This document shows positions 1-53,716 of a stretch of DNA of 64,000 bases, in pieces (within the stretch, counting starts at the first letter, position 1; each line of letters begins with the position of its first letter). The notes under the pieces were generated by a model, which was not told the DNA's origin, did no database searches, and worked only from the letters and a program-made list of their open reading frames with translations. Position numbers and translations under genes: made by a program. Source of the DNA: Tortispora ganteri (taxonomy: Eukaryota); the NCBI GenBank assembly GCA_003707115.1, contig PPNB01000010.1:1-64000 (forward strand), written 5' to 3'.

Positions 1-3000
1 ATGTACGAATTGGTCCGTGTAGGCCACGACAATCTCGTGGGCGAAGTCATCCGTATCGAAGGTGATAAGGCCACCATTCAGGTATACGAGGAAACTGCTG
101 GTCTCACTGTGGGAGATCCCGTGCTTCGCACTGGAAAACCTCTCTCGGTAGAACTCGGTCCCGGTCTTATGGAGAATATCTATGACGGTATCCAGCGTCC
201 TTTGAGAGCCATTCAACAGATTGCCGACTCTATCTACATCCCTAGAGGTATCGACACCCCATCCTTGAGCCGTGAGATCAAGTTTGACTTCACTCCAGGC
301 TCTCTTAAGGTTGGTGATCATATCTCTGGTGGTGATATTTACGGCACAGTCTTCGAGAACTCTTTGGTGTCCAAACACAATATCTTGCTGCCTCCCAGAG
401 CTAGGGGTACTATCACTCACATTGCCGAGGCTGGTAGCTACAACGTTGATGATACTGTTCTCGAAGTGGAATTCAATGGCAAAACCAGCAAGTACTCTCT
501 CATGCACACATGGCCCGTGCGTGTACCTCGCCCGGTCACTGAAAAACTATCTGCTCATCATCCTTTACTCACCGGCCAACGTGTTCTAGATGCCCTCTTT
601 CCCTGTGTCCAAGGTGGTACTACTTGTATCCCTGGAGCTTTCGGCTGCGGCAAAACTGTAATCTCACAGGCTTTATCTAAGTACTCGAACTCCGATATTA
701 TTATCTATGTCGGTTGTTTTGCCGAAGGTACCAAAGTCATCATGGCTGACGGCTCCGACATGCCTATTGAAAATATCCAAATTGGTGACTCGGTCATGGG
801 ATCTGACGGCCTTCCTCGTAAAGTCGTCGATCTACCTCGCGGTGTGGACGACATGTATTTGGTTAGCGAGAAAGATTCTGCTCAGCCTCAAATCTCCTTT
901 ACATGCAATGCTACCCACGATTTGATTCTCAAGACTCCTCAATCTGTCTCAATCTCTACAGATAATGAGCAAACCTCAGTATCGTTCTTGCACCGCGTGA
1001 ACCGTCAAGTAGGATCCATTGAATCTGGAAGCTGCAGAGTCATCGAAATTGTCGAAAGAACTTCTGTTTCGTTTTCTCATACTCAACTTGGTGCAGAAAC
1101 CGCACGCGTTAAAGCGAATCAATTGGCCAATTCCGTCGATGATTCTGATTTACACTGGACTATAGAGGCACGTGACGTAACTCTCATGTCTGAGGAAGTT
1201 CGCAATGCATCGGTACAGTCAATCAGCCCTATTCTACTCGAGAACGAGCGCCTTGCTAGTTATTTGAACTCTAATGGCTTGAATGCCCAATTAGCTCCAC
1301 AAATTGCTTATCTCCTTGGATCTATCATCGGATCTTCTATGCAGTCATCTGCTATTTGCACAAATGATTCTGAACTCGTAGACCAGGCTGAGAAATTTGC
1401 TGAAAAGGCTGGTCTTCATTTGAGGAAATCTGTAAAAGAATCAGGAACTATCATCAACTTTGAATCCAGTCTTATCCCTCTGCAAGGCATGGTTTTCGAT
1501 GTCAAACTTTCCAACTCATCGATGTCTTTCAATGAAGGATTTTTCCACTCTAAGACCAATTCTCAGATTGATTTGGCCAAGATTGCTCGCGAGTTAGGTG
1601 TTAATTCTAAAACGATCCCTACTACTTTCACTCGCGAATCTATGAAAGTCAGAGAGAGTTTGGCTGCTGGCATTGTTGATGCTGCGGGTACTGTCGACTT
1701 TAGCGAATCTGAGATTATCGCGAAAGTTAGCTTAGTTTCTGAGGCTGTTTCGGGATTTGTTAATTTAGCACGCTCACTTGGTATTCGTGCCTCAGTTCCT
1801 CAAGAGAATACTGTAATCATCTCCGGAAAAGAAGCTCTTCAATCAGTTCTAAGCAATTGCGCTATATCTCGCAATAAGACCGATGCTCCTGGATCCTTTA
1901 CACGCCAGGCTCAGGATTTGATATTTGATATCAGCCCCCTCGAACGAGCTAAGTACTTTGGTATTTCTCTGGAAAAGGCTTCTGATCATCAGTTTATGCT
2001 TTCCAACATGACTCTGGTACATAATTGCGGTGAACGTGGCAACGAGATGGCTGAAGTTCTTATGGATTTTCCGGAACTTTCTATTGACATTGATGGACGT
2101 AAGGAGCCCATTATGAAGCGTACTGCTTTGGTCGCCAACACCTCTAATATGCCTGTCGCTGCTCGTGAGGCTTCTATCTATACTGGTATTACACTTTCTG
2201 AGTACTTCCGTGACCAAGGCAAAGATGTTGCTATGATGGCTGATTCGTCATCACGTTGGGCTGAGGCTTTACGTGAAATTTCCGGCCGTTTAGGTGAAAT
2301 GCCTGCTGATCAAGGTTATCCCGCTTACCTTGGAGCTAAGCTAGCATCCTTCTACGAAAGAGCTGGCGCCGCTGTCTGTCTTGGTAATCCATCCCGCCAT
2401 GGTTCAGTAACTGTGGTAGGAGCTGTATCACCTCCTGGTGGTGATTTCTCTGACCCTGTTACCTCAGCAACTCTTGGTATTACTCAAGTGTTCTGGGGTC
2501 TTGACAAGAAGCTCGCACAACGCAAGCATTTCCCCTCAGTCAACACTTCGCTGTCTTATTCGAAATACATGAATTCTCTCTCCAAGTACTACGAAGACAA
2601 TTATCCAGAGTTCCCTGACCTCCGTGACAAAGTGAAGGAGATTATTTCTAATGCCGAGGAACTTGAGCAAGTCGTTCAACTTGTTGGTAAGAGTGCGCTT
2701 TCAGATGGCGATAAAATTACATTAGACGTCAGCTCTTTGATTCAGGAGGATTTTTTGCAGCAGAATGGATATTCCACCTATGATGCTTTCTGCCCTATTT
2801 GGAAGACCAATGCTATGATGAAGAACTTGATCACATACTACGATGAGGCTCAAAAGGCCGTTGCTGCTGGATCTGCATGGAACAAATTAGCTGAGGCTAC
2901 AGCTGATATCAAGCACGCATTATCTTCGCAGAAGTTCTTTGAGCCGAGTTTGGGTGAAGAGGCTCTGAACAAGGAGTTTGGTGCGTTGAACCAGCGTATT

Positions 3001-3030
3001 ACCGATAGTTTTGCTGCAGCAGCTGAATAA
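1..3030 (+). CDS. VMA1: V-type ATPase catalytic subunit A with VMA1 intein; 5' end truncated by window edge
   Basis: Walker [19 protein letters not shown] and [10 protein letters not shown] motifs. The first Met (MYELVRVG) corresponds to an internal Met about 45 aa into other yeast Vma1 proteins. Intein inserted after IIIYVG. Confidence 0.98.
715..2025 (+). mobile_element. VMA1 intein (VDE/PI-SceI-type), 437 aa, homing endonuclease apparently degenerate
   Basis: Starts [13 protein letters not shown] (block A), has block [10 protein letters not shown], ends TLVHN followed by extein Cys. LAGLIDADG-like blocks read [12 protein letters not shown] and [10 protein letters not shown]. Confidence 0.97.
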
Positions 3031-14067: not shown

Positions 14068-14339
14068 GTAAGTTATTTCGGCGTAACGGCAAGAGGTCAG
14101 CAGGATAATTAGGTCTCGAATGAATATATTTTGTGTGAAATAATGAAAGCATTTAGTTGCTGCAATACTTAACTGCCTGAACGTTGTATTGTAACGGGAG
14201 GGAAGTCCACTTGCGAAGTAAGGGGAGACATTTTGCACTAATCCTGATTGGCTCTTGTCGACAAATCAAGCCAACCAACTTGTATTGATGGCTGACTCGG
14301 CGTTGCTTAGAAATGAAGGAGAACTACTAACACTGATAG
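14068..14339 (+). other. Candidate 5'-UTR intron of COX4 (272 nt)
   Basis: GTAAGT at 14068, TACTAAC at 14325-14331, TAG ending at 14339, 74 nt before the ATG. Confidence 0.45.
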
Positions 14340-18349: not shown

Positions 18350-20467
18350 TTAAGAGAAATGATCAACAACTGATTTGAAGGCATAACACAATGCCGCCTG
18401 CATTCTTGCATCGCAGGCTATAATTGTTATAGCAACTATTTCCGATGCGCTGAATTGTTCAATAAGAGAAATAGGTTTCTTTGAAGTAAATGAATTAATA
18501 CTTTTCAAGAATGAACGCAAATCATCATGAAGTTTAGCTTGACAAACGTGATATGAATAGTCATCATTTAAAACTCCACATCTTCTTTGACTATAAGACC
18601 AAATAGCATCACTAAAGTCTCTATTGAGTTTTCCAGAGTCTGCTCTGACACTCATATTCGGCTGACTGTGGACACCCATTGGGATGCGCGAATAGAGGTC
18701 ATCATGATCGAACTTGTCGCCAAAAACCGGGTCATCAACCAATTCAGGAGAATGAATAGATCCTGATCCTTGCAATAAACTTTCATCTATCGATTTCGAT
18801 TCAGACAAAAAAGGGGGTTCAGACGGCGAATTCCTGCCAATCTTCAAAGCTTCAGTCATTCTATGATCAAGAGCTCGCCCAATCGATTCAATATAACTCG
18901 ACACCAGACTTTCACCATCTCTTTCCCAGTTATAATCGGTTGACCGCAACAGTTCTGGAGCTTCAGGATCCTTGTCGTAAGATATGTATGGCAATTGATC
19001 TTCTATGTCAATGAACTTTGCGAAAGACGGATCTGTTGGTTTGCAGGTGACTTTACCATCTTCTGTACTTTTAGAGGCATCAGAGAGCGACAATATGCTA
19101 GTACGTCTCAATTTTGGTTCAAAAAACCGACCACTTGATCGACCGAGACTGCATGCAGTAGTCCAGTCGTCTATTGAACCTGCAGTAGAAACGGAGATAT
19201 AGGATGCCGACAAACAAGAGATATCGTCATCGTTCGACTCCAGAGATTTGGATTCTGCAATACTCTTAATATCTATGCTGAAAGAAGGAATTGGTCCTTC
19301 CAGTAGACTTGAGTTTCTGCGTCTCAATGTGTAAGGCGACGTGCCCTGAGCTAGTAGTGATACAGAGTCGTGCGGTATTAGGCTTTGCGATTCAGAAAAT
19401 TCGGAAGAATGTTGCTGTTTAAGAAGATTAGCTACCGAAAGTGGTGAAATTGCAGTGAACTCAGGTATTAGTCCTAGTGTATTTGCCATGGTGGAGCTGC
19501 TATGAAAAGCAGCAAAGATCGAGATCATTTGGATAACTTCAGATATAGACCAGGGACTACTTCCAGGGCTAGTGTTAGAACATAACTCACGTATATGAGA
19601 GGCAGAAAGTACCCATGGTCTGTGAGCCAGCAATTTGTTGATTTTCTTTAGTTTCTGAAGTTTCTGCGGGGCATGGTCTAGGCCATTCAGCCATTTCGGG
19701 TCGCCACCTGCTGAAAGGAAATCGCGTATTGTCTGAGAAAGCATGTATGGGGACCGACACTCTGCAGCAGCCATTATTGCGAGGTAGGTACGGTATGATC
19801 TTGGCAAAGGGCCGTTATGATCGACGACCACGAGATCCCAGCTGCAATTGTTGAATGCCTCCAGATAAGCTGGATGGAAAGCAAGTAACCTGTCGAAATG
19901 CGTGAGACGGTGAAATTTGATAAATATTTCTGTGAATATATCCTCTATAAATGGGGAAGGGGCGGGTATATGGTGGTCAATACAGTAGCCAAGATAGGCC
20001 GATCTGGAGGTCAGGGAATCAGAAGAGACGGTTTTAGGGGCCATGCTTTTCAAAGGCGATTTCTTGATAAACGAATCACAAGGGAAACCTATGCATTTGT
20101 TGATTGGCAGAAACATACTGGGAGCGTAAGAAACGAGTCTAGGGAGTACTATGCCCATATACTCGCAGCGGTTGAGAGTGCAATAGAGCGAAGAGCGTAT
20201 ATCTAAAAATGGAGCATTCACCTCTAGTCTCATGAGGATTATAAGGAGTTGTTCAAGGATATGAGGCAGTGAGTCATTGTATTCTTCCGGTGATCTGTCT
20301 AAATCCAATACAGAGTATCTTTCATTGTCTAGATCACACGAATTCGAAAATGTTTGGATGTAATCTGTGCACATGGTCCCTACGGCCTTATCAACGTTGA
20401 CGAGGGCAGCGGATCTTATGGCCCGATTTGGACTGAACAAGTCGTTTACCAGCAATGGCAGGTCCAT
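18350..20467 (-). CDS. Sestrin (PA26 family) homologue
   Basis: HPAYL..F, GPLP..YR.YLAIMAAA, FL..GGDP.WL.GL..AP.KL..L..INKLLAHRPW, WS.SE, DYNWE..G.SL, AIWSY..G..NDDY.Y, F..SE.V and ARMQAAL.YA all align with metazoan sestrins. Confidence 0.93.
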   Translation of the reverse strand: MDLPLLVNDLFSPNRAIRSAALVNVDKAVGTMCTDYIQTFSNSCDLDNERYSVLDLDRSPEEYNDSLPHILEQLLIILMRLEVNAPFLDIRSSLYCTLNRCEYMGIVLPRLVSYAPSMFLPINKCIGFPCDSFIKKSPLKSMAPKTVSSDSLTSRSAYLGYCIDHHIPAPSPFIEDIFTEIFIKFHRLTHFDRLLAFHPAYLEAFNNCSWDLVVVDHNGPLPRSYRTYLAIMAAAECRSPYMLSQTIRDFLSAGGDPKWLNGLDHAPQKLQKLKKINKLLAHRPWVLSASHIRELCSNTSPGSSPWSISEVIQMISIFAAFHSSSTMANTLGLIPEFTAISPLSVANLLKQQHSSEFSESQSLIPHDSVSLLAQGTSPYTLRRRNSSLLEGPIPSFSIDIKSIAESKSLESNDDDISCLSASYISVSTAGSIDDWTTACSLGRSSGRFFEPKLRRTSILSLSDASKSTEDGKVTCKPTDPSFAKFIDIEDQLPYISYDKDPEAPELLRSTDYNWERDGESLVSSYIESIGRALDHRMTEALKIGRNSPSEPPFLSESKSIDESLLQGSGSIHSPELVDDPVFGDKFDHDDLYSRIPMGVHSQPNMSVRADSGKLNRDFSDAIWSYSQRRCGVLNDDYSYHVCQAKLHDDLRSFLKSINSFTSKKPISLIEQFSASEIVAITIIACDARMQAALCYAFKSVVDHFS

Positions 20468-25118: not shown

Positions 25119-26368
25119 CTATTCAGAGTTGATTTCAGCACGCTGTTTCTTTGACTGGCTCCAAGTGACGTCGTTGGATTCCAGTTGCTGTAAGAAATCT
25201 TCCCAAGACTTCTCGGAATCAACTACTCCAGTGTTCAATTCGGCTGCAATATCAACATCTTCGCCTTTGTTTATTCTGTTCTGTTAGTATGAAAAATCAA
25301 GTTGTTTCGCAATTATTGAACTTACCTTGATATGATGTCCTTGAGAACCGATATCTTGTTGTTAAGCACACGAGTGGATTCTTTCAACTGTTCTTTTTGA
25401 CGCAGAACGTTAATTACCTGTGATCCAAAGAGTATTAGTAAAATCATGAAAGTCAACAACGGGTTGCTTTGGCGATTCTCAGACGATGCAGAGAAAGGCC
25501 AAAATGAAGATTGTATTAGCTTACCAGGTGATACGTATCGCAAGTACGGCTTTACTTTGCGTACTGTTCCAAACTTAGCTTCAGCGTCCGCGTCTGAGAC
25601 TGGCACAGGGACAATGACGTCTCCACCTGGAGTCCAATTTACAGGTGTAGCTACACCAGCCTTGTCGGCTAGCTGCAGTGCTTCGAGTGCCCGTAGTACT
25701 TCGGCAGTATTACGTCCAACGGCAGGCGGGTAGGTGATGATTATGCGGACCTTCTTATTAGGGTCAATTATGAAGACGGATCGAAGGGAAACAGGAATAG
25801 GATTGGACTTGATATTCTTAACAGACTCTTCGTCCAACATCCCGTAAAGCCAAGACACTTTACGTTCCTCGTCTGCAATAATCGGATAACCGACCTTTGC
25901 ACCTTCAGAGGAAACCTCCTCAATATCCTTGATCCAGCCCTCATGGTCACCCAGCCCGTTAGCAGAAAGGCCAATGAGTTTAGCACCACGCTTCTCAAAT
26001 TCTGGCTGAAGTTTAGCAAACGCACCGAGTTCAGTAGTGCAGACGGGGGTATAATCTGCAGGATGAGAGAAGAATACCACCCAATCGTTGCCGATGAACT
26101 CGTGGAAGCTAATGGGGCCTTTCGAAGTTTGCGCCTTGAAGTCAGGAGCAGTAGATCCTATTCTAATAGGCTCCTGCTGCTCAAAACGGGCAGACATAGA
26201 CACAGAGAATGCTCTTGAACCACTTGGGCAGGAACATTCGCCGCAATCACCACCGTTCTTGTGCACAATGGGTATTCTACGACGCACTACAACACTGCAG
26301 GAACCGCATCCTCCTCCGGTGCGCAATCCAGCGACAGAACGTCTTACAGCAAATTTGGCAGCTTGCAT
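25119..26368 (-). CDS. Prx1 fused to an Ina22/DUF5321-like membrane module; predicted join 26368-25326 + 25275-25119, 399 aa
   Basis: The Prx1 frame has no stop and continues KLIQSSFW...NPLLTFMILLILFGSQ...KISVLKDIISR; removing a 50-nt intron adds INKGEDVDIAAEL...EKSWEDFLQQLE. Confidence 0.7.
25276..25325 (-). other. Spliceosomal intron (50 nt)
   Basis: AG|GTAAGT donor, TACTAAC at 25289-25283, AACAG acceptor ending 25276; removal restores a 52-codon open exon. Confidence 0.85.
25410..26368 (-). CDS. PRX1: Mitochondrial 1-Cys peroxiredoxin; predicted spliced short isoform join 26368-25525 + 25417-25410, 283 aa
   Basis: FSHPADYTPVCTTE active site, GRNTAEVLR, ATPVNW, KPYLRY end. Family identity is certain; the exact 3' end depends on splicing. 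Confidence 0.85.
25418..25524 (-). other. Candidate retained/alternative intron (107 nt) that also encodes protein
   Basis: GTAAGC donor at 25524, TACTAAT at 25440-25434, first downstream AG is CAG ending 25418; removal yields VSPGN-stop. Confidence 0.6.
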
Positions 26369-26481
26369 TTCAGATATTCAACAATAACAAATGCGAAAGT
26401 GGATATGGGAAGGAAGCGAGCGATCACCTGGGTGTTATATATAAGAACGCGGCAGACAAGGAACTCTGCCAGTTGTGCAAG

Positions 26482-26513
26482 ATCACGTGATATATGATCA
26501 TAGTTAGGGTTAG
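26482..26513. promoter_or_regulatory. Cbf1-type E-box next to a telomere-like (Tbf1-type) box upstream of PRX1
   Basis: Palindrome ATCACGTGAT at 26482-26491 and TTAGGGTTAG at 26504-26513. Confidence 0.55.
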
Positions 26514-26989
26514 TAGGTTGGCCATAGAGAAGAACACTATGACGTATAGCTGATCTTAGAAAGCTTCTGAGTAAGCCGCTAGATGTGAAGATATTTCGAT
26601 ACAATGGCTACTAGCATACTGAAAAGCATACAAGTACGACATTGGAGCGGACTGAGCGTATTAAAGATTCGTAAAACGCCTCTGATCTCTGTTTGCCAAT
26701 ACAGATTAAAGTAGATATTCCCTGAACCCTGCTATCCCCAACGGAAGGCATGGGGACTTATGCGGCCGAAGGCTCCTTTTGACCTCGAGTTGCCTCCTGA
26801 AGGAGAGAATATAGCGACCAAAAAGTATATATAACGTGTTTTCTTTTTTTGTGGAGCTGCAAAGTCGCGTATTTGTTACTTGATTGTCGCTATTTTATTG
26901 TCGAAGCAGTAACGGATTTAAGGCTGTTGTTACCACGGGTATAAGCAGTGGTTGGTAACTACCCTTTGTTCTTGTTTCCCGGAATCATT

Positions 26990-43331: not shown

Positions 43332-43622
43332 AACGACTTCTATTTCTCAAGGGAATATATGGAATGTTTGTTGCTGAAGTAGTGGTGAAGGGTAAAAAAG
43401 TGGACAGATTCCTGGAGCGTAGGTATAATTCCCAGTACTTGCTATTGGTTAGTAACCGTCTAAAATTTACCTTTCTATTATTACAACCCTATATATACAT
43501 ACCCTTGTAAGATGAAGTTGAATCCTGCAGTGTCAATTGCATATCCGCCTTAATGTAATTGTCAATCCAAAGTTGTGTGTGCGTACATGACTTATTAGCA
43601 GATAATGTTATAGACAATTGGT

Positions 43623-52639: not shown

Positions 52640-53716
52640 ATGAGAGTGACGCAATTTGCCTTTAGAAATATCAAAGTTGCACTTTCGAATGACTCGATCC
52701 GACATGGGCTCCTCGAAACCGTCGGTGCTACTCCACTAGTCAGGCTGAATGGGATCTCGGAAGAAACGGGGTGTGAAATTTTGGCCAAAGCTGAACAATT
52801 GAATCCGGGAGGTTCTGTAAAAGACCGAGCTGCTTTGTATATGATACGGCAAGCAGAAGTAGACGGTAAGCTACAACGAGGAGGCGTTGTAGTTGAGGGT
52901 ACTGCCGGTAATACAGGAATCGGATTGGCTCACATATGTAAAGCTCGAGGATACAAGTGTGTTATTTATATGCCTGACACTCAATCTCAGGGCAAAATCA
53001 ACACCCTGAGGTTTCTAGGAGCTGAAGTACATCCTGTTCCTGCAGTACCGTATGACAATCCGGAGAACTTTAATCATCAAGCGAAGCGACACGGAGAATC
53101 GATTAAGAATGCTGTTTGGACAGATCAATTCGACAATTTAGCGAACAGGCAAGCCCATATTGAAACTACTGGACCTGAAATCTGGGCACAAACGAACGGC
53201 AAAGTAGATGCATTTGTATGTGCAACAGGTACAGGTGGGTCACTTGCGGGAGTGACTAGCTACCTCAAAGACATTAGTCGTGGAAAGACACAATGCTACC
53301 TCGCCGATCCTCCAGGATCAGTACTCTACACATATATCACATCCGGTGGTAAACTAATTGAGAGATCAGGATCATCGATCACTGAAGGAATTGGGCAAGG
53401 GCGTGTTACTAACAATCTTGCGCAGGATATAGAGAAACTTGATGGAGCTCTTCATATCAAAGACGAGGATACGATTGCTATGTTGTTCCGTATTCTCGAT
53501 GAGGAAGGATTTGATTTAGGTGCTTCGTCTAGCCTAAATGTGAGGGCTGCTTATGACTTAGCAAAGAAACTTGGACCAGGACACACTATTGTCACATTGA
53601 TGTGCGATGGGGTTGGGCGATACGCTGACAGGATATTCTCGAAGAAATGGATACAGTCGAAAGGATTGTGGGATGCCATTCCCGAAGAATATAAGCATTA
53701 CCTAATTCTCGATTAG
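52640..53716 (+). CDS. Cysteine synthase (O-acetylserine sulfhydrylase, cysB/cys11 type)
   Basis: PLP lysine motif [29 protein letters not shown]; no CBS domains; short presequence. Confidence 0.9.

Follow-up and report, generated by a model that had tools for sequence, protein, structure and literature searches.

What is made from a peroxiredoxin gene whose reading frame does not stop where the protein normally ends? This question is raised by a locus in a 64,000-nucleotide (nt) stretch of DNA from the yeast Tortispora ganteri (positions 1 to 64,000 of contig PPNB01000010.1, assembly GCA_003707115.1), the whole of which is called the window below. On its minus strand, from 26368 down to 25119, lies PRX1, the gene of a mitochondrial 1-Cys peroxiredoxin, and its frame continues past the usual end of the protein into a module of 117 amino acids (aa) that matches the Pfam family DUF5321 (PF17254). 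An earlier reading of this DNA, referred to here as the original prediction, had proposed that a splicing switch produces two mitochondrial proteins from this one locus, free Prx1 and a fusion of Prx1 to an Ina22/DUF5321-like protein. Our analysis favours a single gene in which PRX1 is fused in frame to the DUF5321 module and which would make an enzyme anchored in the inner membrane; we put the probability of this reading at roughly three in four. The switch would add a second product to the fusion, and is weighed on its own evidence.

Gene layout and predicted products

The pieces of the locus, and the splice signals within them, are the following:

25525..26368, minus strand: exon 1, 844 nt, with the ATG at 26368; putative basic presequence and 1-Cys peroxiredoxin domain as far as KPYLRYVSPG
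25525, minus strand: last base of exon 1, which is base 1 of the Gly282 codon
25418..25524, minus strand: 107-nt stretch, coding in the fusion frame for most of the membrane helix and, ahead of it, for a linker that is predicted to be disordered and has a QSS motif
25524..25519, 25440..25434 and 25420..25418, minus strand: candidate splice signals of the 107-nt stretch (GTAAGC, TACTAAT and CAG, respectively)
25326..25417, minus strand: exon 2 (92 nt), in which the membrane helix ends and a long helix starts; DUF5321 profile to position 90
25276..25325, minus strand: 50-nt intron, taken as constitutive; GTAAGT, TACTAAC (25289..25283) and AACAG
25119..25275, minus strand: exon 3, 157 nt including the TAG stop (25121..25119); the last 52 aa of the module, matched to positions 91-137 of the DUF5321 profile

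As it stands in the genomic DNA, the open reading frame (ORF) that begins at the PRX1 ATG is 348 aa long (26368..25322, minus strand). It stays open past KPYLRYVSPG and closes at a TAA (25324..25322), which is an in-frame stop supplied by the unspliced 50-nt intron. The products of the different splice paths were computed with a script that joined the pieces by their coordinates. A fully unspliced transcript gives 348 aa. With the 50 nt removed and the 107 nt kept, the product is 399 aa long, has a single terminal stop and ends at 25119. With the 107 nt removed, the first 8 nt of exon 2 finish Gly282 and then supply an Asn codon and a TAA, and the resulting protein of 283 aa has the C-terminus LRYVSPGN-stop. 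When the donor at 25524 is joined to the acceptor at 25276, so that exon 2 is skipped, a protein of 282 aa ending in VSPE-stop is obtained. The run-on PRX1 frame, the two candidate introns, the product lengths of 283 and 399 aa, the module length of 117 aa and the coordinates of the splice junctions had been given in this form in the original prediction, and the joined products reproduce every one of them.

The Prx1 part

By its domains, the first part of the protein is a member of the 1-Cys Prx1/Prx6 subfamily, with both domains and the PVCTTE motif intact. The Pfam matches are AhpC-TSA (PF00578, E 2.7e-30, 105.3 bits against a cut-off of 26) and 1-cysPrx_C (PF10417, E 7.2e-12, 45.5 bits against a cut-off of 21.1). 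The peroxidatic cysteine, Cys110, lies in PVCTTE within the sequence DYTPVCTTELG, and C110, T111, T112 and E113 are invariant in an alignment of 30 sequences. An AlphaFold2 model built on 30 aligned sequences places residues 61-280 in a confident Prx fold. The closest match is Prx1 of Tortispora caseinolytica, which is 85% identical overall and 93% identical over the core.

The N-terminus is basic, the first 60 aa having a net charge of +7 and only 2 acidic residues. In S. cerevisiae, Prx1 reaches the matrix as well as the intermembrane space via Oct1 or IMP processing, as stated in PMC11626719, which cites Gomes et al. 2017. The putative presequence in the window is unusually rich in cysteine (Cys21, 24, 42, 45 and 47, encoded at 26190..26290, minus strand). 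It also contains a stretch R-A-F-S-V-S that is conserved in Lipomyces Prx1 and fits the R-10 motif of MPP/Oct1. This stretch is missing from the gene model of T. caseinolytica Prx1, where a wrongly predicted intron is probably the cause.

The run-on sequence is a DUF5321 module

Two separate stretches of the run-on sequence match the DUF5321 profile, whose length is 160 and whose gathering score is 27. The first (window 25325-25522, minus strand, 66 residues) covers profile positions 36-90 with 38.2 bits, and the second (window 25122-25274, minus strand, 51 residues) covers positions 91-137 with 39.6 bits and an E value of 4.8e-10. Since the two matches meet at positions 90/91 exactly across the 50-nt intron, they show both that the intron and its chosen acceptor are right and that the last 117 aa belong to DUF5321; judged by these profile scores, the module is a member of the family. 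The original prediction had recommended this profile search, and its assignment of the module to DUF5321 holds. The first AG after TACTAAC (25281) was also considered as the acceptor of the 50-nt intron, and rejected: it leads to a stop after three codons and breaks the continuity of the DUF5321 profile.

The signals of the 50-nt intron equal those of two introns elsewhere in the window, which served as splice references and add to the case for the fusion:

14068..14339, plus strand: 5'-proximal intron of a COX4-like gene (PF01215), exact consensus signals
43442..43502, minus strand: 5'-proximal intron of a COX6-like gene (PF02284), exact consensus signals

From its N-terminus, the 399-aa protein would thus begin with a putative basic presequence and continue with the Prx1 enzyme. 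A disordered linker of some 20 aa would lead to a single membrane helix (residues 304-322, approximately), after which a long acidic helical tail forms the C-terminus. The most hydrophobic 19-residue segment of the entire protein is residues 304-322, with a Kyte-Doolittle mean of 2.28. In the AlphaFold2 model the linker (residues 286-300) has a predicted local distance difference test (pLDDT) score below 50, and residues 303-347 form a single long helix, a block with pLDDT 71-91. Hydropathy and model together support a membrane helix followed by a long helix, in line with the membrane helix and coiled coil of the original prediction.

Probably one gene rather than two

Three observations carry the argument for a single gene: removal of the 50-nt intron leaves an uninterrupted frame between the PRX1 ATG and 25119; the Prx1 part, both halves of the module and the intron are all intact; and the module seems to have no means of being made on its own. 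With regard to the last of these, the spacer between the Prx1 homology and the module is 0 nt, and the sole Met of the module is at its position 26, inside the membrane helix. The linker (residues 283-306) has a net charge of +1, with one Lys and one Arg, compared with +7 over the first 60 aa of the protein. Lacking a spacer, a usable start codon and a presequence-like linker, the module could hardly be made except as a continuation of Prx1. All of these features had been predicted, and the sequence and the charge of the linker agree.

These same features bear on the idea that there are two genes here, in which case transcription of the module would start within PRX1, its translation would begin at a non-AUG codon or at the Met of the helix, and the open frame between them would be a coincidence. 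Spacers between genes are indeed short here (214 nt to the ATG of the next gene), and by our own estimate a stop-free match of frames over about 11 codons would arise by chance in about 1 of 5 cases. However, there is no ATG upstream of the helix or anywhere outside it, and a start at the sole Met would cut the helix. Nor did reading the sequence reveal anything resembling a TATA or poly(A) signal where Prx1 gives way to the module, and a different clade of yeasts also has run-on tails built in the same way (see below). We consider two independent genes very improbable.

Even less weight can be given to an artefact or to decay, that is, to an assembly indel or a recent mutation that removed the stop of PRX1 and left the module as a dying gene. 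The closest annotated relative does have a Prx1 without a tail, as this explanation would predict. Against it, both halves of the module score above the DUF5321 threshold, the signals of the 50-nt intron are perfect and its phase is right, and restoring a PRX1 stop would leave the module without any start codon.

Searches for a stand-alone form of the module gave nothing closer. There was no second DUF5321 copy among the 37 further ORFs of at least 110 aa in the 64-kb window, and tblastn of both module pieces against the window returned self-matches only. A HMMER search of the 66-aa piece against 1.84 billion representative proteins yielded no true relative, either from T. caseinolytica or elsewhere, so that no annotated stand-alone homologue appears to be near enough to detect; its sole match (P0121, E 8.4e-4) is a repetitive protein of 403 aa that is clearly unrelated, and was discarded. 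A word-based protein search with the tail (residues 284-348), directed at proteins of 191-609 aa, gave 20 candidates, 0 of them at E of 0.01 or below.

Run-on tails in other Prx1 homologues

To see where Prx1 proteins usually end, we looked at the 120 Prx1 matches listed, 112 of which contain the KPYLR motif. Among these 112, the protein ends 2-12 aa past KPYLR[YF] in 105 cases, whereas the other seven run on for 47-60 aa. The seven are P0014 (Sugiyamaella lignohabitans 'Prx1p'), P0016, P0017, P0032, P0045, P0049 and P0058. Two of their tails are identical, and in each of the resulting six distinct tails a [KQ]SS motif stands equally far along, followed by a hydrophobic stretch and then by a polar end that is short. 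It is also evident that five of the six end in a Lys at exactly the column in which the 50-nt intron of the window gene starts, which is what a donor AA/GTAAG would give in an ORF call.

A FastTree phylogeny of 40 Prx1 sequences (the window protein and 39 of the 120 matches; the other 81, mostly from Pezizomycotina and unnamed records, were left out) placed the seven tailed forms in one clade with Sugiyamaella lignohabitans (Dipodascales), with a Shimodaira-Hasegawa-like (SH-like) support of 98. A profile of the seven tails, used to search for longer proteins, returned only the same seven. In a metagenome scan with P0032, 57 loci were found, the KPYLR motif being present in 30 of them; their tails are 3-7 aa long with one exception, a tail of 35 aa that is acidic and Lys-rich and has no hydrophobic stretch. 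The top locus (L001) encodes an ordinary Prx1 that stands alone and ends at a stop of its own, and the scan gave no DNA of a tailed relative. Taken together, the Sugiyamaella-type tails suggest an older, shared fusion arrangement, with the reservation that profile comparison does not support homology of the tails.

This reservation is one of several points that weigh against the single fusion gene. No Pfam match to DUF5321 was found in any of the seven tailed proteins (0/7) at E values up to 10, and an hhalign comparison of the six other tails with the window tail covered 10 columns with a probability of 1.9% and an E value of 0.025, which is not significant. In the Prx1 tree the tailed forms require two changes. 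Within the window module itself, profile positions 1-35 and 138-160 of DUF5321 have no match. Finally, the Prx1 of T. caseinolytica (P0001), the closest annotated relative, ends in KPYLRYNN and has no tail. In that species the fusion may be absent, or the model may represent a spliced form like the one that ends in GN-stop in the window. It should be underlined that this model also lacks the N-terminal segment common to the window and Lipomyces, and is not fully reliable.

A possible splicing switch at the 3' end

The 107-nt stretch can be regarded as a weak coding intron. Transcripts that keep it would give the fusion, and those from which it is removed would shift frame to Asn-stop and give soluble Prx1 of 283 aa; skipping of exon 2 (25524 to 25276) would likewise give free Prx1, of 282 aa. 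We rate the chance of such a switch, which would add to the fusion and not replace it, as appreciable but short of even.

The position of the signals speaks for the switch. The GTAAGC donor lies four codons past KPYLRY, where free Prx1 proteins end, the branch-point-like TACTAAT is 15 nt before the CAG, and a stop follows within two codons on both splice paths. The deviations from the consensus are mild: position +6 of the donor is C, and the last base of the branch point is U, which by the established U-G wobble could still pair with a G of U2. When donor and branch point were each allowed at most 1 mismatch, 17 distinct donors were counted in that part of the window's coding sequence which is backed by Pfam (46,287 nt); signal sets of this quality thus occur at 0.37 per kb of coding sequence, and only about 0.013 would be expected in the 36 nt after KPYLRY.

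The same count also tells against the switch, since 17 comparable signal sets inside other coding regions of the window mean that chance occurrence is frequent. A set at 53216..53425 (plus strand) has the exact form GTATGT, TACTAAC and AG over 210 nt, inside the ORF of a pyridoxal phosphate (PLP)-dependent enzyme with a continuous Pfam match. This set is most likely due to chance, and calls for caution in reading the 107 nt as an intron. In addition, exact signals (GTAAGT or GTATGT with TACTAAC) are present in each of the window's three clear introns, whereas the 107-nt stretch is off consensus at both sites, and its TACTAAT falls within Leu and Ile codons of the membrane helix, which readily spell such a heptamer. 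A donor directly after the Tyr codon (GTATCA), which would remove 117 nt in frame and delete the membrane helix, was examined as well and set aside, as it is without the conserved G at +5.

The T. caseinolytica model can be read in either direction. It has the shortest C-terminus among the 112 motif-bearing matches listed and ends in Asn-stop, as the spliced form would, but this is possibly just a normal stop. There is precedent, too: introns that were born from coding sequence and are sometimes retained, and switches at the 3' end, are known in Saccharomycotina from PTC7, NUP116/NUP100, MDH and FES1, according to PMC7491326; PMC3372373 is listed as a further source on such events. PRX1, INA22 and Tortispora have 0 occurrences in PMC7491326.

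Proposed topology and fate of the fusion protein

If the locus is a single fusion gene, the module would depend on the promoter, the start codon and the presequence of PRX1. The presequence would take the fusion into mitochondria by the presequence pathway, and the membrane helix would stop the transfer and anchor the protein in the inner membrane. Prx1 would then face the matrix, the acidic helical tail would extend into the intermembrane space, and the outcome would be a peroxiredoxin held at the inner membrane. This layout would be the one described in PMC5665977 for the single-spanning proteins Ina22 and Ina17 of the INA complex.

The fusion might also be a composite precursor, and the original prediction had offered a cleaved polyprotein as one option. 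The 399-aa protein would then be imported and cut at the junction into a matrix Prx1 and a DUF5321 membrane protein, comparable to Arg5,6, Atp25 and S. pombe Rsm22-Cox11. Fungal mitochondria do contain tandem precursors that the processing peptidase cuts at an internal presequence-like segment, as reported in PMC8734313. The linker of the window protein is predicted by the AlphaFold2 model to be disordered, hence accessible. It also has an Arg two residues ahead of a Ser just before the helix, in accordance with a minimal site of the R-2 type. On a crude charge count, however, the linker is not presequence-like, with a net +1 compared with +7 in the putative presequence at the N-terminus. This weakens the option of cleavage, and we hold it to be improbable.

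A more far-reaching proposal joins several of these elements: that one locus makes two proteins by means of a frame-shifting coding intron, which when retained would give an anchored Prx1 together with an Ina22-type module that has no independent expression, and when spliced would give soluble Prx1; and that this arrangement is old, being common to the Trigonopsidales and a clade of Dipodascales, and ties the removal of peroxide physically to the assembly of the membrane part of ATP synthase. We regard the proposal in this full form as tentative and rather unlikely.

Significance and other features of the window

A gene fusion is one of the better clues that two proteins are functional partners. 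The fusion suggests that the enzyme is kept at the inner membrane, the place at which peroxides of lipids and of the respiratory chain arise, or that a thiol peroxidase is a working partner of the DUF5321 proteins, which form a small family in the inner membrane and are poorly understood. Should the 107 nt be spliced in part of the transcripts, the locus would be another case on the short list of budding-yeast genes that yield two differently located proteins by splicing, and one from an early-branching, unsurveyed lineage. There is also a practical side, in that gene callers truncate the PRX1-DUF5321 gene at the end of Prx1 or at the stop within the 50-nt intron, so that the module stays unannotated. 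A search of full-text literature found no paper on the fusion, none on DUF5321 or PF17254, and none that treats Ina22 together with peroxiredoxin (domain-architecture databases were outside its scope), and nothing on domain families was found in the literature on Ina22 orthologues.

The neighbours of PRX1 are ordinary yeast genes; according to Pfam, it is flanked by MIC60 downstream and by a gene for an alpha/beta hydrolase upstream. With the closeness of its Prx1 to that of T. caseinolytica, this places the window in a Tortispora-like budding yeast of the Trigonopsidaceae. In front of PRX1 there is a candidate intron of the 5' untranslated region (26466..26631, minus strand). It could use GTATGC as donor at either 26631 or 26619, contains an exact TACTAAC at 26515 and ends in a CAG at 26466, so that its length would be 154 or 166 nt. 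Ahead of the PRX1 ATG at 26368, another ATG, at 26642, opens a short upstream frame that would reach a stop after splicing of this candidate intron.

Two further genes of the window were recorded. At 1..3027 (plus strand) lies a VMA1-like gene for the catalytic subunit of the vacuolar ATPase (V-ATPase) with an intein, in which the ATP-synt_ab parts are separated by a match to Hom_end_hint (E 7e-70) and by a domain of the homing endonuclease type (E 3e-15); this ORF runs off the start of the window. At 18353..20467 (minus strand) there is an ORF of 705 aa with a strong match to sestrin (PA26, E 5e-70). Sestrins are not known from S. cerevisiae, and a sestrin-like ORF in a budding yeast may merit attention.

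Comparison with known systems

Gene fusion and the 3'-end splicing switch are both known kinds of event. With regard to splicing, the original prediction had compared the locus to PTC7. As described in PMC7491326, the PTC7 intron has an open frame, and its retention adds a membrane helix and changes the location of the protein; splicing choices at the 3' end of MDH and FES1 alter the C-terminus, and in NUP116/NUP100 an intron was born from coding sequence. The likeness to PTC7 holds in so far as the 107-nt stretch is an open frame that encodes a membrane helix and is bounded by near-consensus signals (each site at most 1 base off). It fails in the length: in PTC7 and NUP the intron length can be divided by three, whereas removal of 107 nt shifts the frame and leads to a stop after one codon. 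In this respect the 107-nt candidate has more in common with MDH and FES1 and their switches at the 3' end. The events in PTC7, NUP, MDH and FES1 are backed by RNA evidence, and the 107-nt stretch is a candidate from its sequence.

The composite precursors, namely Arg5,6, Atp25, S. pombe Rsm22-Cox11 and Etp1, share with the window gene the placing of two different mitochondrial proteins behind one presequence. They have an internal presequence-like segment and a processing site at the junction, according to PMC8734313, whereas the junction in the window protein is nearly uncharged by a crude charge count. That the second part is a membrane anchor suggests tethering of the enzyme and not separation of the two parts.

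The run-on Prx1 proteins of the Sugiyamaella type resemble the window protein in that the tail follows directly after KPYLR[YF] and contains the [KQ]SS motif, a hydrophobic stretch and a polar end. They differ in their helices, which are rich in Gly and Ala, and in the segment after the helix, which is about 14 aa shorter than in the window tail.

The family of DUF5321 is presumably that of the S. cerevisiae ATP synthase assembly factor Ina22, a subunit of the INA complex. In a language-model cluster look-up (Protein Atlas), the 66-aa piece of the module gave clusters labelled INA17_C at the top (0.85, 0.81 and 0.81), with a cluster of DUF5321 in seventh place (0.79); these scores are below 0.9 throughout and are to be taken as leads only; the same look-up gave no leads for the 51-aa piece. 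Ina22 and Ina17 are described in PMC5665977 as single-spanning inner-membrane proteins with domains in the intermembrane space that pair through coiled coils. The module has in common with them, as described in that source, one membrane helix followed by a long helix, as judged from hydropathy and the structure model. The module does not have the architecture of a stand-alone, full-length DUF5321 protein: compared with DUF5321/Ina22-type proteins, the module is without an N-terminus and presequence of its own and is placed behind a whole enzyme.

That enzyme shares with the mitochondrial 1-Cys Prx1 of yeast (Prx6 subfamily) both Pfam domains and the PVCTTE motif, and its basic N-terminus is a putative presequence. 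What the window gene adds to yeast Prx1 is 117 residues and a membrane anchor, beyond the point at which 105 of the 112 motif-bearing homologues listed come to their end.

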